Notes: generated by a model not told the origin, from the letters alone. A stretch of 40,128 nucleotides of DNA from an uncultured Candidatus Peribacteria bacterium (GCA_964448005.1 CAYUUW010000010.1:1-40128); one strand, 5' to 3'; shown: positions 2,821 to 39,186, counted from the stretch's first letter. Program-made: numbers and translations.

Positions 2821-2873
2821 CTGTCATCCCGAGCCCCAAGGGGGCCACTCAGTGGCGCAGCCGAAGGATCTGC
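2821..2873. repeat. Hairpin-family element (GTCATCCCGAG...CCGAAGGATC variant)
   Basis: The sequence is ctgtcatcccgagccccaagggggccactcagtggcgcagccgaaggatctgc, an imperfect inverted repeat with an inner gccac/gtggc stem. Confidence 0.5.
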
Positions 2874-3098
2874 TTCCTCTCCTTGATTTTTGTGAGGAAA
2901 GTATACATTTTTTATGAATACATGCATATATCTTATAGATGCATAAATACAGGCCTGTCCCCATAAAGATGCCAATCTCTAAGGGTAATGCAATGTGCTA
3001 CATTGCATGAAATAGATTCGACTTTTTCTTTACAAAAATTAATTTTTAGGTTTAAAATAATAATCCTCCGTTCACGGCTCAATTCTTCATTTTTTTTC

Positions 3099-4196
3099 AT
3101 GGTCAACCCTGCTGAGGCCTACACCCCAGAGGAAAGAAGCCAGGCCCGAGAGACTCTGGACCATTTTCGTTGGCAGCTCCTGGCTTTTTTTGCCGATCGC
3201 CACGGAAAAATGCTGGAAGGCGGAGCGGAGCAGCTGGGGGAGGTGAGGGGCGAGCTGCAGAGGCTCTTCGATCTGTCGCCTTTCGCGGCCTACCTCATCC
3301 CCATGACAGAGGATTTCAACCTTTCTTTTCGCCCGGGGGCTGGCACGGAGGAGGATGAGGCTGGGTCAATCGAAGAGCCATCCTCATTCGATTGTTTCCA
3401 GTCCCCGGTACAGGCGCTGAAGGATCTGCAGCAAGAAGCCTCCTTCCCCCACCTTGATTTGACGGACGACGGAATGCTGAATGCGATGGTTCACAGGGGG
3501 GAGGAGTTTGTTCCTGACGCATTGTCCTTTGCGGACGAAGTTGCCAAATTCAGGGCTTCCATTCTGCTGATGAGAATAAGGGGCGAGTATGATGCCAAGA
3601 AAGTAAAAAGGCTGCTGGCCCATGTTTTGTCGGACTTCTTCAGGCGCTATGGGGTAGGGCCCCCCTTTCAATGGCAAACTCGCCAGCCACCTGCCGGACA
3701 CGCTTTTTTGGAGGGTCTTTTTCAGCGGTTGAGAGAGGAACTTGACTCTCCCTCCTCTGAATTGGGCTCTGTCGACGATTTGGATGATGAGTGCGAAGAA
3801 AAAGCCCTTTTGAATCACTTGGAATCAAATTTTTTGGATCTGGGCGCTTTTTTAAAGCTTTTGATGGGGGATGCTGACCAAATGCTTCAGGAAGAAGAGT
3901 GGTTGCCCGTCCTCACTGCTTGGGCTTTGCGATCATTCCTTCGGGGGCGGAAAGCTGGGCCTCTTTCAGCTTCAGCTCCTGCAGGGCCTTTTCCAGAATT
4001 CCCCTCACTTCCTCGGCTCCATTGGCCTGCATCAGCTGCATCCGCACCTCCTTGGCGCCGTCGAATCCTCGGCAGTACCAGGCCAGATGCTTGCGCATGG
4101 CGAAGAAGGCGTGGGTCATGTGCTTCTCCTCGAAGAGCTGCGAATGCTCCACGGCGGCTGCAAAGCGCTCCTCGATGCTTGGCTCGTGGCCGCTGA
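3099..4196 (+). CDS. Hypothetical acidic protein; the last ~94 codons overlap the convergent dus gene and look like antisense read-through
   Basis: Part of ORF 2988..4196; the first plausible ATG is at 3099 (MVNPAEAYTPEE...). No domain recognised. Composition turns R/A/P-rich after about 3910. Confidence 0.45.
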   Translation: MVNPAEAYTPEERSQARETLDHFRWQLLAFFADRHGKMLEGGAEQLGEVRGELQRLFDLSPFAAYLIPMTEDFNLSFRPGAGTEEDEAGSIEEPSSFDCFQSPVQALKDLQQEASFPHLDLTDDGMLNAMVHRGEEFVPDALSFADEVAKFRASILLMRIRGEYDAKKVKRLLAHVLSDFFRRYGVGPPFQWQTRQPPAGHAFLEGLFQRLREELDSPSSELGSVDDLDDECEEKALLNHLESNFLDLGAFLKLLMGDADQMLQEEEWLPVLTAWALRSFLRGRKAGPLSASAPAGPFPEFPSLPRLHWPASAASAPPWRRRILGSTRPDACAWRRRRGSCASPRRAANAPRRLQSAPRCLARGR

Positions 4197-5013
4197 AGAG
4201 CCAGGGGTTGCCGAAGGTGGCCCGGCCGATCAGCACGCCGTCCACGCCGTATTTTTCGATCCTCTCGCGCGCATCCGCCAATGAGGTCACATCGCCATTG
4301 CCCAAAAGCGTCACGCCCGCTTGGCGGCAGAGCCGGGCAGCCTTGGCGATCTCGTCCCAATCCGCCTGGCCCAGGTACATCTGCTTCAGGGTGCGTCCAT
4401 GCAGGCTCAGATTGGCGGGATGCTCTTCCAGCAGGGTGCCGATCCACCATTCGGTGACAGGGCTGTCGTAGCCGATGCGGGTTTTGACGGAAATCGGCAA
4501 GTGGTTCCGAGGCCCTTCCTCGGGCCTCATTAGCTTGAGATGGTTGATGACCTTGGGGCGAAGCTCCGCCTCTTCCAGCGTGATTCCGTTGGCCCAGTCC
4601 TGGGCCGCCTTTTGCGTCGCGTGGATGATCTGCCTGGCCCGATCGGGCAGGCGAATGAGCCCGGCGCCGGAGCCCCGGCGCGCCACCTTGTTGGCGGGGC
4701 ATCCCATGTTGATGTCGATTCCGTCGAAGCCCAAATGGCACACCATCAGAGCCACCTGGTAGAAGGATTCTGGCTCCACGCCGTAGATCTGCGCCACGCA
4801 GGGCCGTTCGATCTCGTCGTACTTGAAAGCTTCCAGCATGCTCACGGCGCCGCGCGCCAAGCCTTCCACGTTCGTGAATTCGGTCATCACCACGCTGGGC
4901 TTGCCGTGCTTGCTGCTCATGTAGCGGAAAGCCGCGTCGGTCACGCCGTCCATGGGGGAAAGGCCGATGATGGGGCGAGGGAGGGTTTCCCAGAAGCCTT
5001 TGGGGGGAGTCAC
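3913..5013 (-). CDS. dus: tRNA-dihydrouridine synthase (Dus family, FMN TIM barrel)
   Basis: The 366-aa ORF has LSPMDGVTDAAFR, FDGIDINMGCPANKV, SVKTRIGY and LSLHGRT, as in the Dus family. The start codon appears to be GTG at 5013-5011. Confidence 0.88.
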   Translation of the reverse strand: MTPPKGFWETLPRPIIGLSPMDGVTDAAFRYMSSKHGKPSVVMTEFTNVEGLARGAVSMLEAFKYDEIERPCVAQIYGVEPESFYQVALMVCHLGFDGIDINMGCPANKVARRGSGAGLIRLPDRARQIIHATQKAAQDWANGITLEEAELRPKVINHLKLMRPEEGPRNHLPISVKTRIGYDSPVTEWWIGTLLEEHPANLSLHGRTLKQMYLGQADWDEIAKAARLCRQAGVTLLGNGDVTSLADARERIEKYGVDGVLIGRATFGNPWLFSGHEPSIEERFAAAVEHSQLFEEKHMTHAFFAMRKHLAWYCRGFDGAKEVRMQLMQANGAEEVRGILEKALQELKLKEAQLSAPEGMIAKPKQ

Positions 5014-5076
5014 TATTTTTTTAGTTAAAAATTACGAATTAAGAATTAGCAATTTCCAAGCAAAGGTCCATTTTCC

Positions 5077-5172
5077 AATTGTGGACCGAACTGTAGCTCC
5101 AATTGTAGAAAAAAATGATTAAATCCACAATTGGGCCCACAACCGGAGCCACAATTGGTATCACAACCGGGT
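5077..5172. repeat. CAATTG-word repeat array (ccaattgtgg / ccacaattgg / ccacaaccgg, 12-nt period at the 3' side)
   Basis: Read directly: ccacaattgggc ccacaaccggag ccacaattggta tcacaaccgggt. Inverted partner words ccaattgtgg and ccaattgtag lie about 50 nt upstream. It sits between the dus start and the DUF167 stop. Confidence 0.6.
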
Positions 5173-5496
5173 TTCCACTTTCACCAGCTTCAGTCGATCC
5201 TTCTGGCCGCTGATAATGGTGACTTCGCTGGCTTTCAGGGATTTTTTGAGGAACTGGATCAGCTCGGCATTGGCCTTTCCGTCGGTCGCGGGGGCAGCCA
5301 GGCGAATCTTCCAGGTCCCGTCCTCCAGCCGCTCCACGATTTCGGTTTTGGGCGACTTGGGCATGGCTTTGACTTGCAGATAGAAAGGCTTCTTCTCCAA
5401 TTTTTTCCTTTCAAATTCTTCCAGGATTTTGGATTCAAATTGTCTATTATTTTTCATTCCGAGGGCACTCGAATAATGTTCTAAAAAATTGTTCAT
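5161..5496 (-). CDS. DUF167 / YggU-family protein (start uncertain: 5496 or 5457)
   Basis: FYLQVKAMPKSPKTEIV...LAAPATDGKANAELIQFLKKSL...VTIISGQKDRLKLVKV matches the YggU/UPF0235 pattern. Confidence 0.7.
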   Translation of the reverse strand: MNNFLEHYSSALGMKNNRQFESKILEEFERKKLEKKPFYLQVKAMPKSPKTEIVERLEDGTWKIRLAAPATDGKANAELIQFLKKSLKASEVTIISGQKDRLKLVKVETRL

Positions 5497-5606
5497 GAAT
5501 AAAAATTTTGATCAAAAATTCCCTCCCTTCCTAAAGCCCTTCGCAAAAGCACTTTACCTTTTCGGCGTATCCTCTGTATACTCGGGCCCTTCATTTCATA
5601 CCATTT

Positions 5607-6938
5607 ATGCCTTCCCCCTCTCTCCTTGGTTTGGTTTCGGATGCTGCTTCCCCCATGGAAACCGCAGCGCCTGAGGTGGAGCCGGCTCCGGATCTGGGCC
5701 GGATTCTTGAGGGCATTCTTGCTGGGGAATTGAATTTGGACGAAGCTTTGGCCAGGCCGCCTGAAGAGCGTTTCCATCTTCTTTCGGCTTTGCTGGAATC
5801 CAGGAAGCGATGGAGGGGTGAGCTTCAGGCCCTGCTGGAATCCTCGGGCGCAGGCTGCTTTCCGGCTTCCTTGGCTTTGAGGGCTTTGGAATGCGGCTAC
5901 CTGAAGGACGTGCTGCCCTACATGGATCGCTTTGAGGGCCTCAGTCCCTTCTTTCTGGATCAGGCGTTGGATAGGGTGGGCGACATCCGCGGTCTTTTCG
6001 CCGCCTTGGTGAAGCGGATGGAGAGCATCAGCAATCGGGTCGGCCTTGCCTTGGTTCGCTCCGGGCAGGCTGTGGCTGTGGCCACTCAGCTGCGTCATTT
6101 CTCCCCTCTCAATTCCGAGCTGGCTCAGGAGCTGAGCGCCTTGGGATTCCTTCGGCAGGTGCTCGGAGCTTCGCAGGCGACGGATGAATTTCGATTGAGG
6201 CTGATTCATCAGGCTATTTTTGGGGCTCCGGACCTTGAGAAAATCATATCGGATTACGACCTGATGAAAGGTCGCCTTAGGCTGGATAAGGATTTGGCTC
6301 GTCTGATTCTGGCTTCCGGAGAGGAATCCGCTTTGGATTTCTTTTTCGAAAACATTGCCGATTTTGACTCTTTGGATACGGAAATCGCCCAAGCCTTGAT
6401 TGGGGCGGGCGAGCTGGAGAGGCTTTTTGAGCATAGAGCTCATTTTGCCCTGAACTACGAGGCTTTGCCGGTGATTCCTATCGCTCAATTGGGCGGTCAT
6501 ATGGCAGCCGAACTGGCGTTCCAGGTTCCGCTTTCCGAGGACTTCCGCTACAGGCTGGCTGTGGCCTGCATCGATGTGGGGCAGGGGCTGGTTTTGGCGG
6601 AGCGAATGGAGGATTTTGGCCTGAGCGATCCGCTGAAGGCCCAGTGTCTGGCTTCTTTAAAAGCCAGGGGCTATGGCGAGGAGCTGCTTGCCCTTTTGAT
6701 GCGCCACACAAACCAAAGCGTGCTTCTTCTGCGCCCCTCGCTTATTTCAGCTGGCTCCTCCTCCATTTCTCGATCTGCGCATGGTGGCCGCCCAGCAGCA
6801 CCTCGGGCACTTTCATGCCTCGGAACTCCGGCGGGCGGGTGTAGTGGGGGTATTCCTTTTTGCGGTCGAGGCTTTTGGAGAAGCTTTCCTCCTGGTGCGA
6901 TTCGTTGTTGCCCAGGGCGCCAGGCACCAGGCGGCTGA
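5607..6938 (+). CDS. Hypothetical Leu/Ala/Glu-rich protein; the last ~65 codons overlap convergent trmD
   Basis: 443-aa ORF with no domain recognised. The tail after about 6740 is antisense to trmD. Confidence 0.45.
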   Translation: MPSPSLLGLVSDAASPMETAAPEVEPAPDLGRILEGILAGELNLDEALARPPEERFHLLSALLESRKRWRGELQALLESSGAGCFPASLALRALECGYLKDVLPYMDRFEGLSPFFLDQALDRVGDIRGLFAALVKRMESISNRVGLALVRSGQAVAVATQLRHFSPLNSELAQELSALGFLRQVLGASQATDEFRLRLIHQAIFGAPDLEKIISDYDLMKGRLRLDKDLARLILASGEESALDFFFENIADFDSLDTEIAQALIGAGELERLFEHRAHFALNYEALPVIPIAQLGGHMAAELAFQVPLSEDFRYRLAVACIDVGQGLVLAERMEDFGLSDPLKAQCLASLKARGYGEELLALLMRHTNQSVLLLRPSLISAGSSSISRSAHGGRPAAPRALSCLGTPAGGCSGGIPFCGRGFWRSFPPGAIRCCPGRQAPGG

Positions 6939-7392
6939 GCGCATCCACCACGACCATGGCGGCCAGCTCCCCGCCGGAGAGCACAAAATCGCCGATGGAA
7001 AGCTCCTGGTCCACCAGGGCATCGATCACGCGCTGATCTATGCCTTCGTAGTGCCCGCAAAGCAGGATTATTTGATCAAATTTTTTGTTCAGTTTTTCCA
7101 CGCGGGCCTGGGTGAGCCGCTCGCCTTTCGGCGTCAGGTAGATCACAGGGGCTTTGGGAGCCTGCTTCTTGACCGCCTCGATGCAATCGAATAAGGGCTG
7201 GGGGCTCATCACCATGCCGGCGCCGCCGCCGTAGGGCGTGTCGTCCACTTTCTTGTGCTTGTCGCTGGAATAGTCGCGGATGTTGTGCAGGATGATTTCG
7301 ATCACCCCTTTGCCCTGGGCTTTTTTCAGGATGGATTCGTTCAAGAAGCCGCTGAACATTTCCGGAAAGAGAGTGAGGATGTGGAATTTCAT
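6742..7392 (-). CDS. trmD: tRNA (guanine37-N1)-methyltransferase
   Basis: MKFHILTLFPEMF..., DDTPYGGGAGMVM, LLCGHYEGIDQRV and SIGDFVLSGGELAAMVVVDA. ATG at 7392-7390; the upstream 36 codons of the ORF are not conserved-looking. Confidence 0.93.
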   Translation of the reverse strand: MKFHILTLFPEMFSGFLNESILKKAQGKGVIEIILHNIRDYSSDKHKKVDDTPYGGGAGMVMSPQPLFDCIEAVKKQAPKAPVIYLTPKGERLTQARVEKLNKKFDQIILLCGHYEGIDQRVIDALVDQELSIGDFVLSGGELAAMVVVDALSRLVPGALGNNESHQEESFSKSLDRKKEYPHYTRPPEFRGMKVPEVLLGGHHAQIEKWRRSQLK

Positions 7393-7496
7393 GGGTGAGG
7401 CTAAATCGTCAGCCAGTTTAGCAGGATTGGGCCGCTGGGTCATGGGCTTGGCTGAATTTTGACTTTGCAGTGGCAAGGATAGAAAATTGCAAAAGC

Positions 7497-8024
7497 TCAA
7501 TCTCGAACGACCTTCTTGCCTTGGTGTATTTTTGCTGCATAGTAAATCAGGCTAGCCAAGAGTCCTGCCAGCAATGGCCCTAGGGCTAAGTAGACAAATC
7601 CGTATGCAACGGCTGCCCCTAAAAACCCTCCCCAAAGCTTGGAAAATATCGGATCAGCAATGGCCAGAAGGGGATTGAATGGACTGAGCACTGTTCCCAT
7701 TATGGCCAAAAGCCACCTGAGATTATTCAAGAGCACGGACAAATTCATAATGCCCAAAATCAAGGCCAGGATGAATCCCGCCCTAAAGATGCCTATGCTT
7801 AGCTTCCCCAATTTCTGAACTCCGTAGCTTCCCAGAACAAAAACAGTGATGGGCACGGCAATGGCTTCGAAAAGGGTCACTATATTGGTTGAAAAGTTAA
7901 GTTTGCGCACCAGAAAAACAGGCAGAGGGCTAAAGATGAGAATCAGCTCCAATACCGCAAGGAGCAGGAAGAATAGGGCGACTGGCGGGCTAATTCTCTT
8001 TTCGAATAATTTGAAGGGGCTCAT
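7497..8024 (-). CDS. Multi-pass membrane protein, unknown function (visibly lower GC)
   Basis: 175-aa ORF made of 4-5 hydrophobic segments. Confidence 0.6.
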   Translation of the reverse strand: MSPFKLFEKRISPPVALFFLLLAVLELILIFSPLPVFLVRKLNFSTNIVTLFEAIAVPITVFVLGSYGVQKLGKLSIGIFRAGFILALILGIMNLSVLLNNLRWLLAIMGTVLSPFNPLLAIADPIFSKLWGGFLGAAVAYGFVYLALGPLLAGLLASLIYYAAKIHQGKKVVRD

Positions 8025-8182
8025 TTTTCAGAAGTTAAATTCACCTCATGAGAACGGTCCTTATGCTGGAGCAGCCTTTCAGGCTGGTCCAGAATGATTC
8101 AAATGCTGAACCAATCACCATGATTGCCTCCAGCAAAAGCGGTAACTACTCAATAGTGGACCCATTTACAAAATTGCTCCAG

Positions 8183-8208
8183 CAAAAAACCGCTGGGAGG
8201 CGGTTTGG
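8183..8208 (-). terminator. Rho-independent terminator after the helicase gene
   Basis: The minus strand reads ccaaaccgcctcccagcggtttttt, with stem aaaccgc/gcggttt followed by a T run. It lies 30 nt past the stop at 8238. Confidence 0.55.
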
Positions 8209-8237
8209 GCTTGAGGGCTAGTTTTTGGGTTCTTGTC

Positions 8238-9482
8238 CTAGCGGTTCCATTTGGATTTCCTTCGCTTGAAGCCCCCGGGGGAGCGATTCTGGTGGATCGC
8301 TGCGTTTGGCTGAGGGGCGCCGGCCGTGGGATTGTGCGGGATGGGGCTGGCGTAGGGGTGCTCGTGGATGGGGTCGACGCTTTTGCCGATCAGCTTGTGG
8401 ATGTCCCGCAAATAAAGCCTTTCCTCAATGTCGCAGAAGGAGATGGCCTTGCCGCTGGCTCCCGCGCGGCCGGTGCGGCCGATGCGGTGCACATAGGTCT
8501 CCGGCACATTGGGCATGTCGAAGTTGATCACATGGCTCAGGCTGTCCACATCGATGCCTCGGGCGGCGATGTCCGTAGCCACCAGCACGCGGGTGCGGTT
8601 GCCTTTGAAGTTCTCCAAGGCCTTTTGGCGCGCGGCCTGGGATTTGTTCCCATGGATCGCCTCGGCCCGAATGCCGGCCTGCACCAGATGCTTGGCCACC
8701 TTGTTGGCGCCGTGCTTGGTGCGGGTGAAGAGCAGGGCGTTCTGGATGGCTGAATCCTGCAGCAGATGCAGGAGCAAGGCGTTCTTGTGGGTCTTTTCCA
8801 CAAAGTACACCGACTGGCCCACGGTCTCGGCCGTGGAGGAGACGGGGGCGACCGAAACGCTTTCCGGCTGATGCAGGATGGCGTGGGTCAGCTTGAGGAT
8901 CTCGGGCGGCATGGTCGCCGAAAGGAAGATCGATTGGCGCTTGGCGGGAAGCTTGGGGACGATTTTGCGAATGTCCACGATGAAGCCCATGTCCAGCATG
9001 CGGTCGGCTTCGTCCAGGACGAAGATCTCCACCTTGTCCAGCTTGATGAAGCCTTGGCCCATCAGATCGAGCAGGCGGCCCGGCGTGGCGATGAGGATAT
9101 CCACCCCGCTTTTGAGCTTGGCCACTTGAGGGTTCTGGTTCACGCCCCCGAAAATGACGGTGTGGCGCAGGGGCAGGAATTTTCCGTAGTCCCTAAAGCT
9201 TTCGCCGATCTGGATGGCCAGTTCCCGCGTGGGGGCCAGCACCAGGGCTCGGATCACATTCTTTTGGCCCGACGGGGAAGGGGATTGCGTGAGCTTTTGG
9301 AGAATAGGGAGGCTGAAGGCCGCCGTTTTGCCGGTTCCGGTTTGGGCGCATCCCAAAAGGTCTTTCCCCTGCAGCAGAATGGGGATCGATTGGGCTTGGA
9401 TGGGGGTGGGCTGGGTGTAACCGGTCTGGCGCAGGGCGTTCAGCAGGGGTTCAATCAGTTTCAGTTCAGAGAAAGAAGACAT
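8238..9482 (-). CDS. DEAD-box ATP-dependent RNA helicase (RhlE-like)
   Basis: Q-motif region [42 protein letters not shown], and [10 protein letters not shown]. Confidence 0.92.
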
Positions 9483-9517
9483 CGTTAAGGATTTTTGTTT
9501 AAAGGCTAACGATTGCT

Positions 9518-13170: not shown

Positions 13171-13503
13171 CTAATAAATCAGCACCTCGTTCAGGGCAAA
13201 AATAGCCTTCTTCAACTGTTCCTTGCTCACCCGGCCCAGGCGTTCGCCGAGGCGCTTCCCGGAAAGGGTCCGGATCTGGAAGGTGAGGATTTCCGAATCT
13301 TTTTCCAGCCCGTTGCCTGGGCTTTTAGGAATGAAGACGGAGCCTGGATAATCCTTTTTTGACGAGGAAAAAGGGCACACGATGACTAGGCCTAAATGCT
13401 CGTTCATCGCATTCCCCGAAACAATCAGCACGGGCCGTTTTCCATTCTGCTCCCTGCCCAGGGCTGGGTTCAGTTCGGCCCAATAGATCTCGCCTTGCTT
13501 CAT
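13171..13503 (-). CDS. mazF: MazF/PemK-family endoribonuclease toxin
   Basis: MKQGEIYWAELNPALGREQNGKRPVLIVS...LVIVCPFSS is the classic PemK N-terminus. There is a 4-nt ATGA overlap with the upstream gene. Confidence 0.85.
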   Translation of the reverse strand: MKQGEIYWAELNPALGREQNGKRPVLIVSGNAMNEHLGLVIVCPFSSSKKDYPGSVFIPKSPGNGLEKDSEILTFQIRTLSGKRLGERLGRVSKEQLKKAIFALNEVLIY

Positions 13504-13751
13504 AGGTCCAATTGCTTAAGCTGCCCTTCATAATCTTCCACCCCCATTTCGGCCAATTCAAAAAGATCGGCATCTTTGGAGGCGCGCTTGAATCCCTCGG
13601 CGAAGGTGCGGCGCTTCGCCTGGAAACGATAGGCTTTTAGGGCTTCCTCCAGAACCGAGCGCTGGGTGCTGCGCTGCTCCTTGGAAAATTCCCGCAGCCA
13701 CTGCAGAAGCTCTGCAGAGAGGGCGGTGGTGAACATTGGAGCGTTTGCCAT
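13500..13751 (-). CDS. Cognate antitoxin, probably ribbon-helix-helix
   Basis: 83 aa. FTTALSAELLQWLREFSKEQRSTQRSVLEEALKAY resembles a CopG/RHH fold. It is translationally coupled to mazF. Confidence 0.65.
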   Translation of the reverse strand: MANAPMFTTALSAELLQWLREFSKEQRSTQRSVLEEALKAYRFQAKRRTFAEGFKRASKDADLFELAEMGVEDYEGQLKQLDL

Positions 13752-14654: not shown

Positions 14655-14963
14655 CTTTCGCCTTTCGTGTTTTGTTTCCGGTAGCCTTCCAGGCTCCATT
14701 CGGGCTGCCCAAAAGGCTTCCGGAAACGGCTCTCTGCCCGGAACTTCTCGCTCTCCAGTCGGGGCCACACCCTGCGAACAGAGGGTTGGCCACAGGAACT
14801 GAGGGGCAGAAATCGGGTCAGCGAGCGCCGGTGCTGCTAAGGATCGTTGGCTGAAAAATAACATAAAAATTAAATTACGTCAATAAAAATTCAGCGCCCC
14901 GTCTCTTTGATTGGCGCCTATTTTTCTGTTTCTTTACTGAAGAATAATGAGCGGGAAAATCAG

Positions 14964-15040
14964 GTCAGATTCTTCGCTGCGCTCTGAATGACGGATGGGC
15001 TCAGTCAAATCGTAGGCAGGTCGGGGCACGGAATGACAGG
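14964..15040. repeat. Two hairpin-family elements in the 14655-15147 spacer
   Basis: gtcagattcttcgctgcgctctgaatgac lies at 14964-14992. A truncated inverted copy of the 38210-type element lies at 15011-15040 (reverse complement cctgtcattccgtgccccgacctgcctacg). Confidence 0.6.
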
Positions 15041-18006: not shown

Positions 18007-18091
18007 CCTGCCTGCCGGCAGGGATAGTTGTTATTATTGAGAGCCCCCCTCTGTCATTCCGACCGAAGCGCAGCGCAGCGGAGGAATCTTC
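18007..18091. repeat. Palindrome cctgcctgccggcagg plus hairpin-family element
   Basis: ctgtcattccgaccgaagcgcagcgcagcggaggaatcttc lies at 18051-18091. The cctgccggcagg core at 18011-18022 recurs at 38229-38248 and 39119-39139. Confidence 0.6.
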
Positions 18092-18217: not shown

Positions 18218-20257
<2,040 letters not shown>

Positions 20258-21448: not shown

Positions 21449-21523
21449 GCGCCCATAGCTTAACGGATAAAGTCCCGGTCTTCGGAACCGGTTATGGGGG
21501 TTCGATTCCCTCTGGGCGCACCA
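21449..21523 (+). tRNA. tRNA-Arg (anticodon TCG), CCA encoded
   Basis: Hand-folded cloverleaf: acceptor gcgccca/tgggcgc, anticodon stem ccggt/accgg with loop cTTCGga, and T arm ggggg-ttcgatt-ccctc. Confidence 0.9.
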
Positions 21524-21534
21524 TCAAAAACCAC

Positions 21535-21612
21535 GGGCGGGTAGCTCAGTTTGGCTAGAGCGCAGCATTCGCATTGCTGAGGTCGAGGGTTCGAGTCCCT
21601 TCCGGTCCACCA
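21535..21612 (+). tRNA. tRNA-Ala (anticodon CGC), CCA encoded
   Basis: Hand-folded: D arm gctc/gagc, anticodon stem cagca/tgctg with loop ttCGCat, and T arm gaggg-ttcgagt-ccctt. The G3:U70 alanine identity pair is present. There is one G5-G68 acceptor mismatch. Confidence 0.85.
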
Positions 21613-21655
21613 GCCTTCGTTTGCCGTGAATGAAATGAGCGGGAATAAGAAGGCT

Positions 21656-21683
21656 GTCATTCGTAGCTTAAGCGAAGAATGGC
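21656..21683. repeat. Hairpin-family element immediately after tRNA-Ala
   Basis: gtcattcgtagcttaagcgaagaatggc, preceded by aatgagcgggaataa, which also precedes the 14964 copy (aatgagcgggaaaat). Confidence 0.55.
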
Positions 21684-21926: not shown

Positions 21927-21928
21927 GG

Positions 21929-31331: not shown

Positions 31332-31514
31332 GGGAGCGAATTAGGGGATTGAATCTGAAGCGAGTTTATCGGAAAAGCTCTCTTTTTAAAACCTCCCTCT
31401 ATTCTCTTTTCCCTTCAAAACAGTGCGGAAATTGCGTAAACTGTGCGTTGAAAAACATGCGGCAGGCGGCCAGCTGTCTGCCGCAAGCGGTTGCAGCCAC
31501 TGGCCTGCATCAGT

Positions 31515-31559
31515 CCCAATAATCCCCACACTCCCCACGCTCCCAATAATCCCACCCAA
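31515..31559 (+). repeat. Five in-phase CCC-N6 9-mers abutting the gatB ATG
   Basis: cccaataat ccccacact ccccacgct cccaataat cccacccaa ATG. Confidence 0.75.
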
Positions 31560-32990
31560 ATGATTTACGAAACCGTCATCGGCCTGGAAGTGCATTGCCG
31601 GCTGAAAACCAAAAGCAAGCTGTTCTGCCGCTGCGCCAACGAAGGGGTGGCCGACGAAGCCCCCAACAGCCGCGTCTGCCCCATCTGCATGGGCTTTCCC
31701 GGCATGCTGCCTTTGATGAACCAGGCGGCTGTGGAGAAGGGGGTGCAGGCGGCTTTGGCCTTGGGCTGCACAATTCCGGAATTCTCGAAGATGGACCGCA
31801 AGAGCTACTTCTACCCCGATCTGCCCATGGGCTACCAGATCTCGCAGTACGATCTGCCCGTGTCGCAGAAGGGGGCGGTGAGCATCACGCTGTCCGACGG
31901 ATCCGAGAAAGCCATCGGCGTGACCCGGCTGCACCTGGAGAACGACGCAGGCAAGCTGACGCACGGCGCCAATGGAACCCTCGTCGATTACAACCGGGGC
32001 GGCGTTCCCCTGATGGAGATTGTGAGCGAGCCGGATCTGCGCACGCCCGAGGAGGCGGTGGAATACGCCCGCCAGCTGCAGAAGATCGTGCGCTACGTGG
32101 GGGCGAGCGATGCGGACATGGAAAAGGGGCAGATGCGCTTCGACCTGAACCTTTCCCTGCGCCCTGTGGGCCAGGCGGCCTTCGGCACCCGCTCGGAAGT
32201 CAAGAACCTCAATTCCTTCCGCTCGCTGCAGAAGGCTGCGGAGTACGAGATCAGGCGCCAGACGGAGCTGCTGGAGAAGGGCGAGAAGATCGTTCAGGAA
32301 ACCCGCGGCTGGGACGACGAAAAAGAGATCACCGTGTCGCAGCGCAGCAAGGAGGAGGCGGCCGACTACCGCTACTTTCCCGAGCCGGATCTGCCTCCTT
32401 TGCGGATGACGAAGGAGATGGTGGAGGCGCTGCGCGCCCAGCTTCCCGAGCTGCCCGAGGCCAAAGCGAAGCGCTACCAAAGCGAGTTGGGCCTGCCTGC
32501 GGCCGATGCGCGCCAGATCGCGGAGGACCGGGCCTTGGCCGAGTACTACGAGGCGGCGCTGGCGACATCCGGCGAGGCGAAGAAGACGGCGAACTGGCTG
32601 CTGAGCGAGCTACTGGCCCTGCTGAAGCCGGAGGGGCTGACGATCGAGCAATCGAAGCTCTCTGCTCCGAACTTGGGCAAATTGGTCAAATTGATTGAAT
32701 CCGGCGCGATCACGGGCAGGATCGCCAAGGACCTTTTCCCCGAGCTTTACGCGGGGGATCTGAATCCGGAGAAGCTGGTGGAGGAGAGGGGACTTACGGT
32801 GATGGAAGATGCCGGCGCCTTGGAGGCGATCTGCCGCCAGGTGATCGAGCGCAATCCGCAGATCGTGGCGGACTTCAAGGCCGGCAAGGAAAAGGCCTTG
32901 GGCGGCTTGGTGGGTCAGGTGATGGCGGCGACGAAGGGGGCGGCGAATCCGGGGAAAGTGAATGAGGTGTTGAGGGAATTGCTTCGGTAA
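31560..32990 (+). CDS. gatB: Asp/Glu-tRNA(Asn/Gln) amidotransferase subunit B
   Basis: MIYETVIGLEVHCRLKTKSKLFCRC, CPICMGFPGMLP, DRKSYFYPDLPMGYQISQ, VTRLHLENDAGK, and the C-terminal YqeY-like tail. Confidence 0.93.
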   Translation: MIYETVIGLEVHCRLKTKSKLFCRCANEGVADEAPNSRVCPICMGFPGMLPLMNQAAVEKGVQAALALGCTIPEFSKMDRKSYFYPDLPMGYQISQYDLPVSQKGAVSITLSDGSEKAIGVTRLHLENDAGKLTHGANGTLVDYNRGGVPLMEIVSEPDLRTPEEAVEYARQLQKIVRYVGASDADMEKGQMRFDLNLSLRPVGQAAFGTRSEVKNLNSFRSLQKAAEYEIRRQTELLEKGEKIVQETRGWDDEKEITVSQRSKEEAADYRYFPEPDLPPLRMTKEMVEALRAQLPELPEAKAKRYQSELGLPAADARQIAEDRALAEYYEAALATSGEAKKTANWLLSELLALLKPEGLTIEQSKLSAPNLGKLVKLIESGAITGRIAKDLFPELYAGDLNPEKLVEERGLTVMEDAGALEAICRQVIERNPQIVADFKAGKEKALGGLVGQVMAATKGAANPGKVNEVLRELLR

Positions 32991-33002
32991 GGATTGTTTT
33001 AA

Positions 33003-34011
33003 AGAATGCTTGTTATGGGAAACAATAAAAATCTCATCATCTATCAGGCTAAAACCGGAGCCATTGAGCTTAAGGGTGATTTTAAAAAAGAGACGGTATG
33101 GGCTAATTTGAATCAAATTGCTCAGCTTTTTGATACTGATAAATCAGGTATATCTAGGCATATCAAGAACATTTTTAAAATCAAAGAACTTAAACAAAAA
33201 TCAAGTGTTGCAATTTTTGCAACAGTTCAAAAGGAAGGTGGTAAGCAAGTGAAGCGCGATATAGAATACTATAATTTAGACATGATTCTTTCCGTTGGCT
33301 ATAGGGTGAATAGTAAAAAAGCAACTTCATTCCGCCAATGGGCGACTAAAACTTTGCGTTCCCACCTCATTCAGGGCTATACCATTAATCGCTCTCAAAT
33401 TGGCAGGAACTACGAGAAATTTATGAAGGCCGTGGCAGAAGTTAAGTTGCTTTTGCCTCCTTCGGACTTGGTCGACGCCAACGATGCCCTTGAACTGGCT
33501 CAGCTTTTCGCCAATACGTGGTTTTCTCTGGATGCTTATGATAGGTCCACTTTTCCCGTAAAAGGATTGATGAAAAAGGAAGTTGATTTTACTGCCAATC
33601 AGCTTGCTCAAGCTTTGGCTGAGCTTAAAAAGGGGCTCATGGCCAAAAAGGAGGCTTCGGGGCTTTTCGGTTCCGAGCGGGGTGGTCAGAGCTTGGCGGG
33701 GATTGTGGGGAATGTTTTTCAGTCTTTTGAGGGTGAGGATTTATATGTGACGATTGAAGAGAAGGCAGCTCATTTGCTTTACTTCATTGTTAAAAACCAT
33801 CCTTTTGTGGATGGAAACAAGCGTTCCGGGGCTTTTGCCTTTGTTTGGTTTTTGAATCGGAGTGGAATTCTGGAGAAAGAGAAAATGAACCCCGTTGCCC
33901 TCACTGTGTTGACTTTGCTGGTGGCAGAGAGTGATCCAAAGGAAAAGGATAGAATTATTGGATTGATTTTATTGCTTCTGAGATAGGCGATCTTAAAAAA
34001 TGATCAGGGGG
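33003..34011 (+). mobile_element. Putative inserted single-gene cassette (RhuM-Fic/Doc) bounded by duplicated gatB 3' ends; no recombinase
   Basis: See the direct repeats 32943-33002 and 34012-34071. The interior has visibly lower GC. Confidence 0.45.
33006..33986 (+). CDS. RhuM-family N-terminal domain fused to a Fic/Doc (death-on-curing type) domain
   Basis: RhuM block: ETVWANLNQIAQLF...ISRHIKNIF...YYNLDMILSVGYRVNSKKATSFRQWATKTLRSHLIQGY. Doc-type Fic motif: HPFVDGNKRSGAFAF. Confidence 0.85.
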   Translation: MLVMGNNKNLIIYQAKTGAIELKGDFKKETVWANLNQIAQLFDTDKSGISRHIKNIFKIKELKQKSSVAIFATVQKEGGKQVKRDIEYYNLDMILSVGYRVNSKKATSFRQWATKTLRSHLIQGYTINRSQIGRNYEKFMKAVAEVKLLLPPSDLVDANDALELAQLFANTWFSLDAYDRSTFPVKGLMKKEVDFTANQLAQALAELKKGLMAKKEASGLFGSERGGQSLAGIVGNVFQSFEGEDLYVTIEEKAAHLLYFIVKNHPFVDGNKRSGAFAFVWFLNRSGILEKEKMNPVALTVLTLLVAESDPKEKDRIIGLILLLLR

Positions 34012-34059
34012 GCGAATCCGGGGGAGCTGAATGAGATTTTGAGGGGGATGTTGGGGTAG
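34012..34059 (+). pseudogene. Relic copy of the gatB 3' end (ANPGELNEILRGMLG*)
   Basis: It is gap-free and 36/48 nt identical to 32943-32990 (ANPGKVNEVLRELLR*). The phase is the same and the stop falls at the equivalent codon. Confidence 0.6.
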
Positions 34060-34096
34060 GGGAGTTTTATTGATTTTACTATTTTAACAATTAACT

Positions 34097-34594
34097 ATGG
34101 AAAAAGAATATTTTGAGTACAAAAAAGAGTATTGGAAAGAAGAGCTTTTCAGATCCTCTGATAAGGCAAATTTTCATTCACACAATTTTTGCAATACCCA
34201 AGCAAATTTAGCCTCGATAGTGATAGGATTCCTCTCATTCAGTATTTATTTTGATGTAGGGGTTTTTTCCGACACAAAAATATTGATATTTCTGACCTAT
34301 ATGTCTGCATTTTTGTCCTTAGCATTTGGTTTGTTTAATTTCGGCCTCAAGCGTAGATTTTGGTCTGATTCTACTGATAAAATTCAGAAAATTAATGGAG
34401 AGTATCTTAAATTCTTAAAAACAAAAAAGGATGATACGAAGCAGGAGGACTACAGATGTTTATTTGAAAAAGAGAAATTGATTTTAGGTGAGAAGAAAGT
34501 CTCGTCAAATTCTTGGGCATGGATATCACAAAGTATTTTTTTGGCAGTAAGTTTTTTACTTTTTATTCTAGTTTCATGGAAAGCGGCATTCTGA
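34097..34594 (+). CDS. Hypothetical 3-TM membrane protein, low GC
   Basis: 165 aa. Hydrophobic segments lie at ~37-57, 64-88 and 141-162, with a K/E-rich loop between. No domain recognised. Confidence 0.55.
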   Translation: MEKEYFEYKKEYWKEELFRSSDKANFHSHNFCNTQANLASIVIGFLSFSIYFDVGVFSDTKILIFLTYMSAFLSLAFGLFNFGLKRRFWSDSTDKIQKINGEYLKFLKTKKDDTKQEDYRCLFEKEKLILGEKKVSSNSWAWISQSIFLAVSFLLFILVSWKAAF

Positions 34595-34637
34595 GCTGGG
34601 GCAGATCTTTAATCTGTTTCAGCATCCTCACGGCTGC

Positions 34638-34927
34638 CATGGACTCCGGATCGGGTCCGGAGTGACGGAGGGGGAGGGCATGGACTCCGGCCCTGCCTAC
34701 CGTCGCCGGAATGACGGCCATTCATCCAGCAAACCATCCGTCATTCCGTGCCACGACACGGAATCCACCTGTCCCTCCAATTCACCTTTTAGACTGTGGC
34801 AGATCTGCCTCCCGCCGCCACCCATGGACTCCGGATCGGGTCCGAAGTGACGCTCCCCACCCGTCATTCCGTGCTACGACACGGAATCCACCTACCCCTC
34901 TATCATTCCGGCGAAAGCCGGGATCCA
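34638..34927. repeat. Pile-up of six hairpin-family elements upstream of the GIY-YIG gene
   Basis: The elements lie at 34638-34668(-), 34679-34717(-), 34738-34769(+), 34823-34852(-), 34861-34892(+) and 34902-34927(+). The consensus is CCGTCAYTCCG-loop-CGGARTCCA. Confidence 0.8.
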
Positions 34928-35266
34928 TACCAAAACAGTCATCATGAAGCAGCCCTGCGTTTACATTCTGGCTAGCCAGCCGCAGGGCACCTTGTACATC
35001 GGCGTCACGAGCGACCTGATGAAAAGGGTGCATGAGCACAAGCAGAAGCTCGTGGAGGGGTTCACTAAAAAATACAATGTAGATCGACTCGTCTATTTTG
35101 AGCTCCATGAGGATATGCCTTCGGCCATTGAGCGTGAGAAGCATTTGAAGGAGTGGAAAAGGCGATGGAAGATCGAACTCATAGAAAAGGAGAATCCCCT
35201 TTGGACCGATCTGTATGAGAGTCTGCTGGAGTGAAAAGCGTGGATTCCGGCTTTCGCCGGAATGAC
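34902..35266 (+). mobile_element. Putative 365-bp unit: a GIY-YIG gene bracketed by 26-nt inverted hairpin elements
   Basis: atcattccggcgaaagccgggatcca at 34902-34927 matches the reverse complement of 35241-35266 (gtcattccggcgaaagccggaatcca) at 24/26 positions. The repeats lie 16 nt before the ATG and 6 nt after the stop. Confidence 0.45.
34944..35234 (+). CDS. GIY-YIG nuclease superfamily protein (UPF0213/YhbQ-like, COG2827 type)
   Basis: CVYILASQPQGTLYIGVTSDLMKRVHEHK...VYFELHEDMPSAIEREKHLKEWKRRWK. Confidence 0.88.
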   Translation: MKQPCVYILASQPQGTLYIGVTSDLMKRVHEHKQKLVEGFTKKYNVDRLVYFELHEDMPSAIEREKHLKEWKRRWKIELIEKENPLWTDLYESLLE

Positions 35267-35368
35267 GAATGGTGTGGTCCTTAGGCTTTTATTGAATAAA
35301 AAATTTGTTCAATTAAATCCAAACCCACCCGTCATTCTGGCGCTGCCCATCGACGCCGGATCGTGGCT
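35241..35368. repeat. Two further hairpin-family elements downstream of the GIY-YIG gene
   Basis: tggattccggctttcgccggaatgac lies at 35241-35266, and cccgtcattctggcgctgcccatcgacgccggatcg at about 35328-35368. Confidence 0.7.
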
Positions 35369-35461
35369 TGGTGTGACGATTGGCGTTAGGCGTGAATCAT
35401 CAAAAAATACAGGCGGGGCAATGTCCCGCCTGTATTTCGCCTCTTTCCTCAGTTTATCCGA

Positions 35462-36895
35462 TTAGGGGCACATCATTCCTCCATCGTCGATGCTCCACAA
35501 ATGGGCAGTGATCAGGCTGCTCCGATCCGGTTCGCTCTTGCAGTAGGTGGAATCGCCTCCGTGGAAGGGGACCTTGGGCTGCACGGCCTGGGCGTTCCAT
35601 CCTGCCAAAAGGGAATCGTAATTCGGGGTGGAAAGGCGGGCACCTGTAAACATATCCGTCATATCGGTGACGGAAGCTATATTCCAATTGCCGATATTCT
35701 GGTCGAAATCGATGGCATCGGCGAACATGAAGTGCATGTCGGTCACTTTGCTGACGTCCCAGCCTCCGATGTCCTGGTTGAAGGGGGTGTCTGCGAACAT
35801 TCCTGTCATATTCGTCACGTTGCTCACGTCCCAATTGCCAAGGTTATGGTTGAAAGGGGTATATGAGAACATGTCGGTCATATTCGTGACATTTCCCACA
35901 TTCCAGCCCCCGATATCCTGATTGAATGCGGCCGCACCCGAAAATATTCCGCTCATGTCTGTGACGCCGCTAACATCCCAATTGCCAATGGCTTGATTGA
36001 AGGCGGTGTTTTGGGCGAACATTCCCCTCATTTCTTTCACATTGCCTACATCCCAGCTGCCGATCTTCTGGTTGAAAGCAGTATTATGAGCGAGCATGTA
36101 GGACATATCTGTTACGTTTCCTACATCCCAGCTGCCGATGTCTTCGTTGAAAAGGGTCGATGAAAACATTCCGAACATATTTTTCACACCACTCACATCC
36201 CAGTTGCTTATTTTCTGGTTGAACGCATTGTTACCAGCAAACATATCACTCATGCTTGCCACCTTGCTCACATCCCAACTGCTGATGTCTTGGTTGAAGA
36301 AGGGGGTCGCTGCGAACAGGGCGCTCATGTCCGTCACCTTGCCCACATCCCAACCGCTGATGTCTTGGTTTAAGGAGGTTTCCGCGAACATGGCGCTCAT
36401 GTCCGTGACATGCGAAAGGTTGGGGCTGTCGGTGGCGTTGAGGGTCATGTTGTACGCTCCACTGAAAGCGCGAGCCATAGAAGTCCATGGGCTCTTGCCC
36501 CATTGCTCCACACTAAGCAGCTTTCCGCCTTCCGCCGTATAGGCAAAATAGATTCGCGGAAAAGTGCCGGAGATAGAGATGTTATAGGTTCCTGGCCCAG
36601 CGTAGTCACACGTGTAATCCCCGATTTGGTGGGTTGCTTCATGGATACCGTCGCTGTCGCAATCGACGCTGTAGTCGTAGACCTCCCCTGGAAAGGTGGG
36701 GATGGTGAACTGGTCATTGGCCGAGATTCCGGGATTGTCCGTCTTCGCTTTGATCACGAAATCATTGGGATCGTTCTTCGCGGAGATCGTCAAATCGTTG
36801 GGAGCGTAGGGGGTGCGGGAGGCATGCGCATAATTCATGTCCAAGAATCCTGCCAGCAGGACTAGGGCGGCTAGGGCGAATGAAATTTTCTTCAT
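35462..36895 (-). CDS. BspA-family leucine-rich-repeat surface protein (DUF285 repeats)
   Basis: A signal peptide is followed by about 10 repeats of FNQDIxxWDVSxVTxMxxMF. Confidence 0.85.
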   Translation of the reverse strand: MKKISFALAALVLLAGFLDMNYAHASRTPYAPNDLTISAKNDPNDFVIKAKTDNPGISANDQFTIPTFPGEVYDYSVDCDSDGIHEATHQIGDYTCDYAGPGTYNISISGTFPRIYFAYTAEGGKLLSVEQWGKSPWTSMARAFSGAYNMTLNATDSPNLSHVTDMSAMFAETSLNQDISGWDVGKVTDMSALFAATPFFNQDISSWDVSKVASMSDMFAGNNAFNQKISNWDVSGVKNMFGMFSSTLFNEDIGSWDVGNVTDMSYMLAHNTAFNQKIGSWDVGNVKEMRGMFAQNTAFNQAIGNWDVSGVTDMSGIFSGAAAFNQDIGGWNVGNVTNMTDMFSYTPFNHNLGNWDVSNVTNMTGMFADTPFNQDIGGWDVSKVTDMHFMFADAIDFDQNIGNWNIASVTDMTDMFTGARLSTPNYDSLLAGWNAQAVQPKVPFHGGDSTYCKSEPDRSSLITAHLWSIDDGGMMCP

Positions 36896-37259
36896 AGAAT
36901 ATAGAGTTTAAGAAAATAAAAGCAAGGCAATAAGAAGGGAAAAAATTATCCCCAAATGCCTTCATTCTTCATGAAACAAAGGCGAGCTGCTTTTGCCGAT
37001 TATTTTGAAGATTGCCTGAAGAAGCCTGATGCTTCCTTCGAGTCGGCTTCCAAACGGAATGGCTCCATTCCTGCGCCTCTTTCAGAATACCATTAAAATC
37101 AGGAAAAAGCCACCCAAGAGGACAGGTTCCAGGAATGGCTTTCAATGCCTGAAGCCCAATGGGCTTCCGTCCGAAGAGAGCAGGATCTATTCAATTTAAT
37201 GGAAAAGTGATACCATGCTAATGGGCTTGAGCTCGGTTTAGTCATTAACCCTTGCTACC

Positions 37260-38129
37260 ATGAAAAAGCGCACTTTTGCAGCCCTCTTTTTTGCTGCCCT
37301 GTTCCTGGCCGCATGCGACTGGAAAAACCCCTTCTCTTCGGAGGAGGCGACCTCGCCGGAGAGTCCCAATCTGAGCCAAAGCAGTGCGGAGGAGGCGGAT
37401 GCTTCCGGCCTGGAAAAAAGAACCGAGGAGGAAGAGGAAAGAATGGTTGCGGCAGCAGAAGGTAAATTTGGCGCCGAGATACGAAGCCTAGACGGCTTTT
37501 ACTATACGGACGGCAAACAGGTCTATTTTGCCTACAGCAGCATGGGGGCCGATGATGAATTGAGGCTGGTGGATGGGGCGGATGCCGGCACGTTTGAGGT
37601 CATTGAAATGGATGGAGATGATTCCTGGATCCGTTTCGGCAAGGACGCGAACTATGTTTATTCGGATGGGGAAAGAATCGAGGGGGTCAGCGGCGAGGAT
37701 TTTGAGTTTCTCGCCGATCCCAACGGAACTCCGCTTTACGCGAAAGACGCGAACAGCGTTTACATGCTGTACGACGATCTGATGGGCGGCGCAGGAAGCC
37801 TGACCCACTTCATTGAGCTGGAGGAGGCGGACCCGGCCACGTTCGAATTCTTCGATCATGAGAACCGGAACAGCGTGAATGCCCGCTACGCCCACGATGA
37901 CAAGCAGGCCTACTTTGGATCCAAGCTGATCGCAGGCGCGGACGGGGAAACCTTTGAGCATGTCCAGTATTCCGTGGCGAAGGACGGCGAGAATGTTTAT
38001 TTCTTGGGGGAAAAGGTGGAAGGCGCCGATCCGGACAGCATCGAGTACGCCCCTGGATCCTGCGACACCTGCTACAAAGACAAGAACGCCGTGTTCGAAT
38101 GCTTCAACACCTGCAAGATCCGGGAATAG
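37260..38129 (+). CDS. DKNYY-repeat lipoprotein
   Basis: Lipobox FLAAC, then repeats DANYVYSDGERIEG, DANSVYMLYD, DDKQAYFGSKLIAGADGETFE, DGENVYFLGEKVEGADPDSIE and DKNAVFE. Confidence 0.8.
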   Translation: MKKRTFAALFFAALFLAACDWKNPFSSEEATSPESPNLSQSSAEEADASGLEKRTEEEEERMVAAAEGKFGAEIRSLDGFYYTDGKQVYFAYSSMGADDELRLVDGADAGTFEVIEMDGDDSWIRFGKDANYVYSDGERIEGVSGEDFEFLADPNGTPLYAKDANSVYMLYDDLMGGAGSLTHFIELEEADPATFEFFDHENRNSVNARYAHDDKQAYFGSKLIAGADGETFEHVQYSVAKDGENVYFLGEKVEGADPDSIEYAPGSCDTCYKDKNAVFECFNTCKIRE

Positions 38130-38174
38130 CCTTGTTATTCTGAGGCACGACCCGGAGCCCAGGCTCCAATTTCA

Positions 38175-38258
38175 GGACCTCCTCCGGCTCCTCCAAGGGG
38201 GGAGGGTTGCTGTCATTCCGTGCTCCGACCTGCCTGCCGGCAGGCAGGCACGGAATCC
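38175..38258. repeat. Composite repeat (GGACCTCCTCC...GGAGG module plus GTCATTCCGTGC-palindrome-GCACGGAATCC hairpin), left of the ORF6N gene
   Basis: 38210-38248 is 38/39 identical to 39101-39139. The inner perfect palindrome is ctgcctgccggcaggcag. Confidence 0.8.
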
Positions 38259-38273
38259 ATCCAATCTTCTAAG

Positions 38274-38305
38274 CTTGAGGTCGCAATTTGCGACCTCAAG
38301 TTTTT
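38274..38305 (+). terminator. Terminator-like perfect 26-nt palindrome plus T5
   Basis: cttgaggtcgcaa|ttgcgacctcaag followed by ttttt. A near copy occurs inside the ORF6N CDS at 38616-38642. Confidence 0.6.
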
Positions 38306-38397
38306 CTGGCCGAGATAGCCGACTATCTCTTGGTTTTTTTAAAATCACTTGATAAGTAAACTTTTGTTTACTAGAATGAGTAGGAAATTGGAATTTG

Positions 38398-38964
38398 ATG
38401 AATAGCAGCATGAAAAAGGAATCTGTGCCCATGACTATTTTTCCTGAAAAAATTCAGGATTTCATTTATGTCATTCGTGATCAGCGAGTGATTTTGGATA
38501 AAGATCTCGCGAAGCTGTATGGCGTGGAAACCAGGAGGCTGAACGAGCAGGTAAAAAGGAATATCGACCGATTCCCGGAGGATTTTATGTTTCAGCTAAC
38601 AGAGAAGGAGGTTGCTTTAAGATCGCAAATTGCGACCTTAAAGAAAAGGCGTGGTGAACATCGTAAATACTTGCCCTTTGCTTTTACTGAGCATGGTGCC
38701 ATCATGGCCGCCAATTTGCTCAGGAGTCCTCAGGCGATCTCGGTAAGTATTCAGGTTGTCCGTACTTTTATCGAACTCCGCAAATGGACCCAATCCCATC
38801 AGGCGCTTATTGAGGAAGTAGACTCACTCAAAAATTTTGTGCTCAAAAATTCACAAACAAGCAGCCAAGAATTCAGGAAGGTCTGGAGGGCGATCGAGAA
38901 ATTGATGGTTCCTGAACCCAAACCAGAGGAAAGGCGAATTGGATTTAGGCTGGAAGGGGATTGA
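38398..38964 (+). CDS. ORF6N (KilA-N-related) domain DNA-binding protein
   Basis: IRDQRVILDKDLAKLYGVETRRLNEQVKRNIDRFPEDFMFQLTEKE...RKYLPFAFTEHGAIMAANLL. Alternative starts lie at 38395, 38410 and 38431. Confidence 0.8.
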   Translation: MNSSMKKESVPMTIFPEKIQDFIYVIRDQRVILDKDLAKLYGVETRRLNEQVKRNIDRFPEDFMFQLTEKEVALRSQIATLKKRRGEHRKYLPFAFTEHGAIMAANLLRSPQAISVSIQVVRTFIELRKWTQSHQALIEEVDSLKNFVLKNSQTSSQEFRKVWRAIEKLMVPEPKPEERRIGFRLEGD

Positions 38965-38987
38965 GCCAGGAGTATTTCCTAAATTTT

Positions 38988-39186
38988 GGACCTCCTCCCG
39001 GCCTCCTCCAAAGGAGGAGGGGAAATGCAAAATACAGATCCCCCCTGCCCCCCCCTTTCGCAAGGGGGGTGTCGTTGCCAATCACAGGTCTTCTCCCACT
39101 CCGTCATTCCGTGCTCCGACCTGCCTGCCGGCAGGCAGGCTCCTCCAAAGGAGGAGGGGTGCTGTCATTTCGGCGAAAGCATTAAT
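38988..39186. repeat. Composite repeat block right of the ORF6N gene
   Basis: ggacctcctcccggcctcctccaaaggaggagggg lies at 38988-39022, and the hairpin cccccc-tttcgcaa-gggggg at about 39051-39070. ccgtcattccgtgctccgacctgcctgccggcaggcagg lies at 39101-39139, ctcctccaaaggaggagggg at 39140-39159, and gtcatttcggcgaaagc at 39164-39180. Confidence 0.8.

Follow-up and report, generated by a model that had tools for sequence, protein, structure and literature searches.

In Neisseria, Chenal et al. (2025, Nat Commun; PMC11893778) described the Neisseria Transformation Sequence (NTS), CGTCATTCCCGCGMAVGCGGGAATCYRG, as a subset of the dRS3 repeats, and generalised it to Ssn-related motifs (SRMs), which flank SsnA genes in many phyla. 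SsnA is a single-domain GIY-YIG protein of 94 amino acids (aa; CDD cd10448) that binds the hairpin solely in its single-stranded DNA form and cleaves a few nucleotides 5' of it. Neither duplex DNA nor RNA nor the opposite strand is recognised, and the N. meningitidis protein reduces transformation by motif-bearing DNA. The same paper makes no mention of candidate-phyla-radiation lineages, and our literature search found no later work on SsnA. Here, we analysed a stretch of 40,128 nucleotides (CAYUUW010000010.1; hereafter the window), which is the entire contig C10 of the draft genome of an uncultured Candidatus Peribacteria bacterium (1.50 Mb, 98 contigs, 55% G+C). This host probably belongs to the candidate phyla radiation, in a class with some TGA-recoding members. 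The window contains a cluster of hairpin repeats around a gene for a 96-aa GIY-YIG protein, which we term ssn (34944-35234, plus strand). Judging from sequence, these hairpins are very likely SRMs, i.e. the same kind of element as NTS/dRS3, and the 96-aa protein is very likely their cognate Ssn nuclease. An earlier inspection of the window (the sequence-only reading) had described the hairpins as a dispersed repeat family and overlooked the key feature, the nuclease gene inside the hairpin cluster.

Most of the hairpins belong to one large dispersed family, which we refer to as type 1. Allowing one mismatch, its 5' arm GTCATTCCG occurs at 23 sites in the window with 9.5 expected, and the pattern GTCATTCCG-N4-44-CGGAATCC has 49 exact matches genome-wide, compared to none for the reversed control pattern. 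The sequences pointed out previously are present at the coordinates given for them, and the family stands far above chance. Requiring an 8-bp stem and allowing up to two arm mismatches, we count ~68 copies in the genome. Copy number varies strongly between lineages, as the 49 exact copies of this genome compare to 0-13 in 40 relatives. The copies are mostly non-coding: 12 of 68 lie inside open reading frames (ORFs) flagged as coding by a crude mask, though such ORFs span 80% of the genome.

The type-1 consensus is cGTCATTCCGGCGAAAGCCGGAATCCAg, with the general form c-GTCATTCCG-(two covarying stem pairs, 4-7-nt loop)-CGGAATCCA-g/t. It describes an oriented hairpin with a conserved (C)GTCAT at the 5' side that reaches into the stem, an 8-bp stem that can vary in sequence only by compensation, and a conserved C (here CCA) directly 3' of the stem. 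An alignment of 69 distinct copies shows no variation in GTCA or in the C that follows the stem. Stem variants differ by paired changes (ATTCCC/GGGAAT, ATCCCG/CGGGAT and ACTCCG/CGGAGT), and six of the eight stem pairs are changed on both sides with pairing kept; as the aligned copies had been pre-selected for pairing, only the variety of the pairs is informative here. Folded as DNA, canonical copies are stable (z = -2.9 to -4.8). The 10 nt preceding the copies are poor in G and show C at positions -6 and -5, an A-rich stretch at -4 and -3, C at -2 and C or T at -1, which amounts to CC-n-n-C-Y before GTCAT. Directly 3' of the motif stands a G or T, after which the sequence is mixed. From this family we built a covariance model (R1), to which all bit scores below refer.

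This consensus equals NTS save for one compensatory C:G to G:C swap in the stem (the GCGAAAGC subfamily). Moreover, the published SRM search string, HGTCWYN(0-2)YYVSBRHN(0-5)WNVSBRGN(0-2)RNCYNB, has 34 matches in the genome versus 8.6 in simulated genomes, and one of these (35240-35267) is the hairpin directly downstream of ssn. In Neisseria, dRS3 serves as integration site for filamentous prophages through an IS110-type recombinase, and the present hairpins could be read in the same way. Their core is of the same kind as that of dRS3 (ATTCCC-N8-GGGAAT), and the genome holds 14 copies of ATTCCG-N8-CGGAAT beside the exact dRS3 copies, of which there are only four. No prophage or recombinase stands beside any window copy, with no genome search for IS110-family genes having been made, and integration would be a secondary use that leaves the origin of the repeats unexplained; we therefore regard this explanation as extremely unlikely. 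The resemblance to dRS3 and to the Neisseria intergenic mosaic elements (NIME) also extends to the arrangement, with a palindromic core and hairpins that alternate with repeated segments of 50-130 nt common to several loci. The intervening segments themselves are unrelated in sequence to those of Neisseria.

The ssn product matches PF01541 over residues 4-77 of its 96 residues (E=1.9e-16). Its residues Y7, Y18 and E65 do not vary among 18 homologues and correspond to Y6, Y17 and E64 of Neisseria SsnA, the residues mutated by Chenal et al. (PMC11893778). No solved structure in the PDB matches the protein, NCBIfam holds no specific model for it, and a look-up of its contigs by exact sequence gave no entry. 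The gene is bracketed by inverted type-1 copies that point their GTCAT ends outward and are identical at 24 of 26 positions as an inverted repeat. The left bracket, ATCATTCCGGCGAAAGCCGGGATCCA, lies on the plus strand at 34902-34927, 16 nt 5' of the ATG (29.4 bits). The right bracket, GTCATTCCGGCGAAAGCCGGAATCCA, lies on the minus strand at 35241-35266, 6 nt 3' of the stop codon (42.6 bits); it folds as DNA at -10.6 kcal/mol (z = -4.8) and fits the published search string. Hairpin, gene and hairpin together form a cassette of 365 bp.

The linkage between gene and motif holds across phyla. Of 401 genomes of the same class, a set that leaves out the window's own genome, 159 encode homologues of the protein, and genomes of 1 Mb hold up to 8 copies. 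Homologues at 60-76% identity further occur in Proteobacteria, Chloroflexi, Planctomycetes, Patescibacteria, Omnitrophica and others. A hairpin of the form GTC-stem-loop-stem-C lies no more than 150 nt from the gene at 84% of 107 homologue loci, which come from many phyla, and 56 of these loci (52%) show an outward bracket. Hairpins upstream of the gene are mostly forward (74 versus 15 reverse), and those downstream mostly reverse (71 versus 29 forward). In deltaproteobacterial, Dehalococcoidia, Propionivibrio and Micavibrio assemblies, homologues are bracketed by exactly the hairpin variant seen in this window. In sister families, many of the Ssn homologues carry 1-7 in-frame TGA codons; this suggests recoding in the sister families and not in the family of the window, and the class was assigned from this read-through only.

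Gene and hairpin also co-occur within the class. Across the 401 genomes, 85 have both a strong Ssn homologue and R1 hairpins and 226 have neither, while in 53 the hairpins lack a strong Ssn match and in 37 Ssn lacks hairpins. The odds ratio is 9.8 (p = 3e-22, a statistic that ignores kinship and counts at most 18 hairpins per genome). These two limits of the statistic weigh against our assignment, as do the 53 and 37 discordant genomes. In the same direction, most subfamilies with loops of 5-7 nt and every copy of a second motif class (type 2, see below) escape the published search string, and the transformation role is established in Neisseria meningitidis alone (PMC11893778). Sequence and architecture place the ssn product in the Ssn family, with its assignment to cd10448 being putative.

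Set beside the published SsnA system, the locus has the same CGTCAT at the 5' side, 8-bp stem, short loop and C directly 3' of the stem in near-identical sequence. The copies number hundreds to tens and are mainly intergenic, and a single-domain GIY-YIG gene of ~95 aa sits between inverted copies. The densest motifs surround accessory genes of surface or lipoprotein type, here a DUF285 and a DKNYY gene, like the NTS clusters in Neisseria. There are differences as well. The dominant stem is ATTCCG/CGGAAT instead of the ATTCCC/GGGAAT of Neisseria, the host genome has only ~1.5 Mb and is probably of the candidate phyla radiation, and several loop subfamilies fall outside the search string. Unlike the published system, which was worked out experimentally in Neisseria, this one is known from its DNA. 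It further carries a second, imperfect motif class with a second paralogue, and a 20-nt palindrome nested in about nine loops.

In the window, the type-1 copies concentrate around ssn. The sequence-only reading had counted eight copies between 34.6 and 35.4 kb; R1 finds seven of them in 34639-35268 (22-43 bits), and the eighth is decayed. In addition to the two brackets, these seven comprise a compensated stem variant, GTCACTCCGG...CCGGAGTCCA, on the minus strand at 34640-34666 (38 bits); a copy with an enlarged loop that holds a fragment of the nested palindrome, on the minus strand at 34681-34715 (26.9 bits); GTCATTCCGTGCCACGACACGGAATCCA on the plus strand at 34740-34767 (35 bits; fold z = -2.9); a slightly decayed copy with three mismatches on the minus strand at 34825-34851 (21.7 bits); and GTCATTCCGTGCTACGACACGGAATCCA on the plus strand at 34863-34890 (35 bits). 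The decayed eighth copy, GTCATTCTGGCG...CGCCGGATCGTGG, was recognised by eye on the plus strand at 35331-35378, where R1 has no match and the fold is not better than that of shuffled sequences. Further downstream, an intact copy on the plus strand at 38212-38259 contains the 20-nt palindrome CCTGCCTGCCGGCAGGCAGG (38229-38248) in its loop, folds at -15.7 kcal/mol (z = -4.1) and starts 83 nt 3' of the stop codon of the DKNYY gene, whose product has a lipoprotein-like leader. Three other copies named previously turned out to be truncated or decayed. At 39103-39139 (plus strand), the 5' arm and the nested palindrome are kept and the 3' arm is lost; at 39164-39190 (plus strand), GTCATTTCGGCGAAAGCATTAATTCA scores 8 bits (E=5); and at 15011-15037 (minus strand), the 5' arm and half of the nested palindrome remain.

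The nested palindrome pointed out earlier, CCTGCCTRCCGGCAGGCAGG, is perfect over 20 nt and has 20 sites in the genome, about half of which (about nine) lie in type-1 loops. Its sites include 38229-38248, 39120-39139 and 18007-18023 in the window, the last being a partial palindrome outside any SRM, and C24:5484, C21:20588, C12:9767 and others elsewhere. Several further sites occupy loops of terminator-like hairpins that are unrelated to the family. The palindrome usually abuts CGA/TCG directly. CCTGCCTRCCGGCAGGCAGG looks like a tiny element, or the product of a process, that inserts into hairpin loops. A small hairpin, CCTCC-loop-GGAGG with GKTGCT after it, directly precedes two motifs on their 5' side (38190-38211 and 39139-39163); it belongs to a larger mosaic unit that also occurs on contigs C37, C54, C5 and C17.

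The sequence-only reading had treated all hairpins as a single family. A real, genome-wide family exists, yet two motif classes had been merged, since the sites at 2823, 14967, 18053 and 21656 are of type 2. This pattern reads GTCATyCnGAsC...GArGrAT with an imperfect interior (GAsCG...GArG), and the four sites 2823-2871, 14967-14991, 18053-18089 and 21656-21682 have only the ends GTCATyC...GrAT(CT) in common. R1 finds none of the four, and for two of them the fold is not better than that of shuffled sequences. Genome-wide we find ~27 type-2 copies, compared to 12 for the reversed control of the 5' half. The stem is defined loosely, because early stem patterns caught few copies. The first site, GTCATCCCGAGC...GCCGAAGGATCT, carries a loop insertion, lies on the plus strand in the spacer upstream of serS and does not fold better than its shuffles. 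The second, TCATTCAGAGCGCAGCGAAGAATCT, is on the minus strand and folds weakly. The third, GTCATTCCGACCGAAGCGCAGCGCAGCGGAGGAATCT, lies on the plus strand between the stop codon of a 945-aa ORF and gyrB (-8 kcal/mol, z = -1.7). The fourth is a degenerate type-2-like motif on the plus strand, 47 nt 3' of the second of two tRNA genes. An upstream module, aatgagcgggaa, had been proposed as shared by two of these sites. It has only three copies in the genome, next to oppositely oriented hairpins, and is therefore not a module of the family. Around 22 nt of similar sequence, GAAT-AATGAGCGGGAA-A-AGG, adjoin two type-2 motifs of opposite orientation at 14940-14965 and 21626-21655; the 12-mer within it has one other copy in the genome.

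The type-2 class pairs with an Ssn paralogue of its own. The locus of this second GIY-YIG gene is on contig C20 (14586-15088), its product is 47% identical to the window protein, and it is bracketed by type-2 motifs, the left of which matches the subtype of 18053-18089. In other genomes of the class, tttGTCATyyCGAsC...GGAGrrATCCCTT motifs bracket its closest homologues. In addition, a decayed hairpin resembling type 1, with a fragment of the palindrome, lies in the left flank of the C20 gene.

The positions of the copies bear on whether they might act as terminators or RNA-stability hairpins repeated by functional convergence, a function that had been suggested for them. Many copies do lie shortly 3' of stop codons (e.g. 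18053, 34640, 38212 and 39103), and the type-1 stems are stable. The earlier statement that the elements mostly follow stop codons holds for about five of eight loci, which follow a stop codon or a tRNA; those at 2823 and 14967/15011 are found in spacers that are divergent or 5' of genes. Three loci are not behind stops. The copies take both orientations relative to their neighbours, and eight of them in 730 bp would be superfluous for termination. T-tails were not found, which argues against intrinsic terminators, and a terminator scan called no copy among its 29 terminator-like sites in 21-40 kb. Nor are the hairpins syntenically conserved terminators, judging from the 0-13 copies in the relatives and from orthologous spacers: in the closest contigs that carry gatB, no copies stand next to this gene. 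Termination would also leave the conserved unpaired GTC/CCA flanks and the cross-phyla linkage to a nuclease unexplained, and the enzyme of Neisseria shows no binding to its hairpin as RNA (PMC11893778). Taken together, a role as terminators is highly improbable.

The lineage-specific amplification raises another alternative, a mobile family. The sequence-only reading had proposed an active or recently active family akin to miniature inverted-repeat transposable elements (MITEs); of this, one large dispersed family with strong copy-number variation is supported. In such an explanation, of the MITE or of the REP/RAYT type (repetitive extragenic palindromes and their associated tyrosine transposases), the hairpins and inverted doublets of ~100 nt would be non-autonomous elements copied by a transposase, the mobilising enzyme being either a Y1 (RAYT/IS200-like) transposase or the GIY-YIG protein itself. 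Several observations are in line with mobility. Doublets of ~70-120 nt with GTC pointing outward resemble the ssn cassette without its gene, and outward adjacent pairs outnumber inward ones by ~9 to 2 among the listed pairs in a manual count. The same doublets stand beside gatB in a distant relative (contig L162), flanking that gene on both sides (2720-2856 and 6209-6342) as GTC-outward doublets of GTCATTCCCGCTTGTCGGGAATC. The motifs sit in larger, NIME-like mosaic repeats common to several loci. Genomes of 1 Mb hold up to eight ssn copies, and the scatter of similar homologues across phyla suggests horizontal spread. Chenal et al. liken NTS-ssnA-NTS to an insertion sequence (PMC11893778), and the present genome contains three Y1_Tnp-like genes (weak matches). 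In the other direction, direct repeats next to single copies, doublets and the cassette do not exceed in length those at random sites, none of the three Y1-like genes is bracketed by hairpins, and strand-transfer activity is not known for a 96-aa nuclease. A scan of metagenomes with GatB for near-identical strains gave a best match of 73% identity. Overall, a mobile family of either type seems to us possible but doubtful.

Two specific forms of mobility find no support in the architecture. For a classical MITE, there is no target-site duplication beyond chance, and the sole linked gene codes for a nuclease and not a transposase. For a REP/RAYT system, none of the three weak Y1_Tnp matches represents a Y1 (HUH) gene flanked by inverted hairpins. 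Like REP/REPIN-RAYT systems, the locus has short extragenic hairpins, inverted doublets and a small gene flanked by its own inverted repeats, and shares a persistence that is probably mostly vertical with lineage-specific bursts; unlike there, the associated protein is a GIY-YIG nuclease and not a Y1/HUH transposase. A further, unlikely explanation is that the ssn cassette and the gene-less doublets (~100 nt, GTC outward) form a self-propagating, RAYT/REPIN-like pair driven by the 96-aa nuclease. Copies would then multiply when hairpins extruded on single-stranded DNA are cleaved and repair or template switching ensues. Such copying would leave no target duplication, and the second paralogue with its imperfect motif would represent, within one small genome, another pair that co-evolves independently.

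With the hairpins taken as SRMs of a cognate Ssn nuclease, we infer by analogy with Neisseria how the system might act. The protein would recognise the hairpin only on the single-stranded motif strand, ignoring duplex DNA, RNA and the complementary strand, and would cut a few nucleotides 5' of the motif within the conserved C-rich CC-n-n-C-Y stretch. The cut site of the Neisseria enzyme falls within this stretch. In the cell, the enzyme would likely restrict or trim single-stranded DNA, e.g. incoming transforming DNA, and motif-flanked genes would then recombine less readily. Uptake of single-stranded DNA is plausible, as the genome encodes ComEC and DprA.

The remaining content of the window was called by Pfam and by reading of ORFs. 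It includes serS (within 1464-2975) and a Dus-family gene (3913-5013), both on the minus strand, gyrB (18242-20257), the two tRNAs (21449-21609) and gatB (31491-32990). A RhuM/Fic gene (33006-33986) and a 165-aa ORF without family match (34097-34594) follow gatB as an island of low G+C at third codon positions (33006-34594), directly 5' of the hairpin array. Beyond ssn, the DUF285 gene (35462-36895, minus strand), the DKNYY gene (37260-38129) and an ORF6N gene (38395-38964) complete the region. On the minus strand at 13171-13751, a MazF/PemK-like toxin ORF of 110 aa shares 4 nt with the end of the 83-aa ORF upstream of it; from the translations alone, the two are a probable toxin-antitoxin pair. 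An Rfam scan of the window returned the two tRNAs only, and the hairpins match no RNA family.

The apparent novelty of these repeats is thus removed, as the published Ssn/SRM system already explains them; the nested palindromes, gene-less doublets and mosaic arrays are minor additions to it. Natural loop insertions, gene-less doublets and mosaic arrays nevertheless bear on how SRMs multiply. Two co-resident enzyme-motif pairs with distinct motifs would be useful for studies of specificity and for single-stranded-DNA tools. With the present instance, the Ssn/SRM system reaches into genomes that are very small and probably episymbiotic. Such genomes are thought to depend on DNA uptake, and restriction of single-stranded DNA could therefore matter in them.

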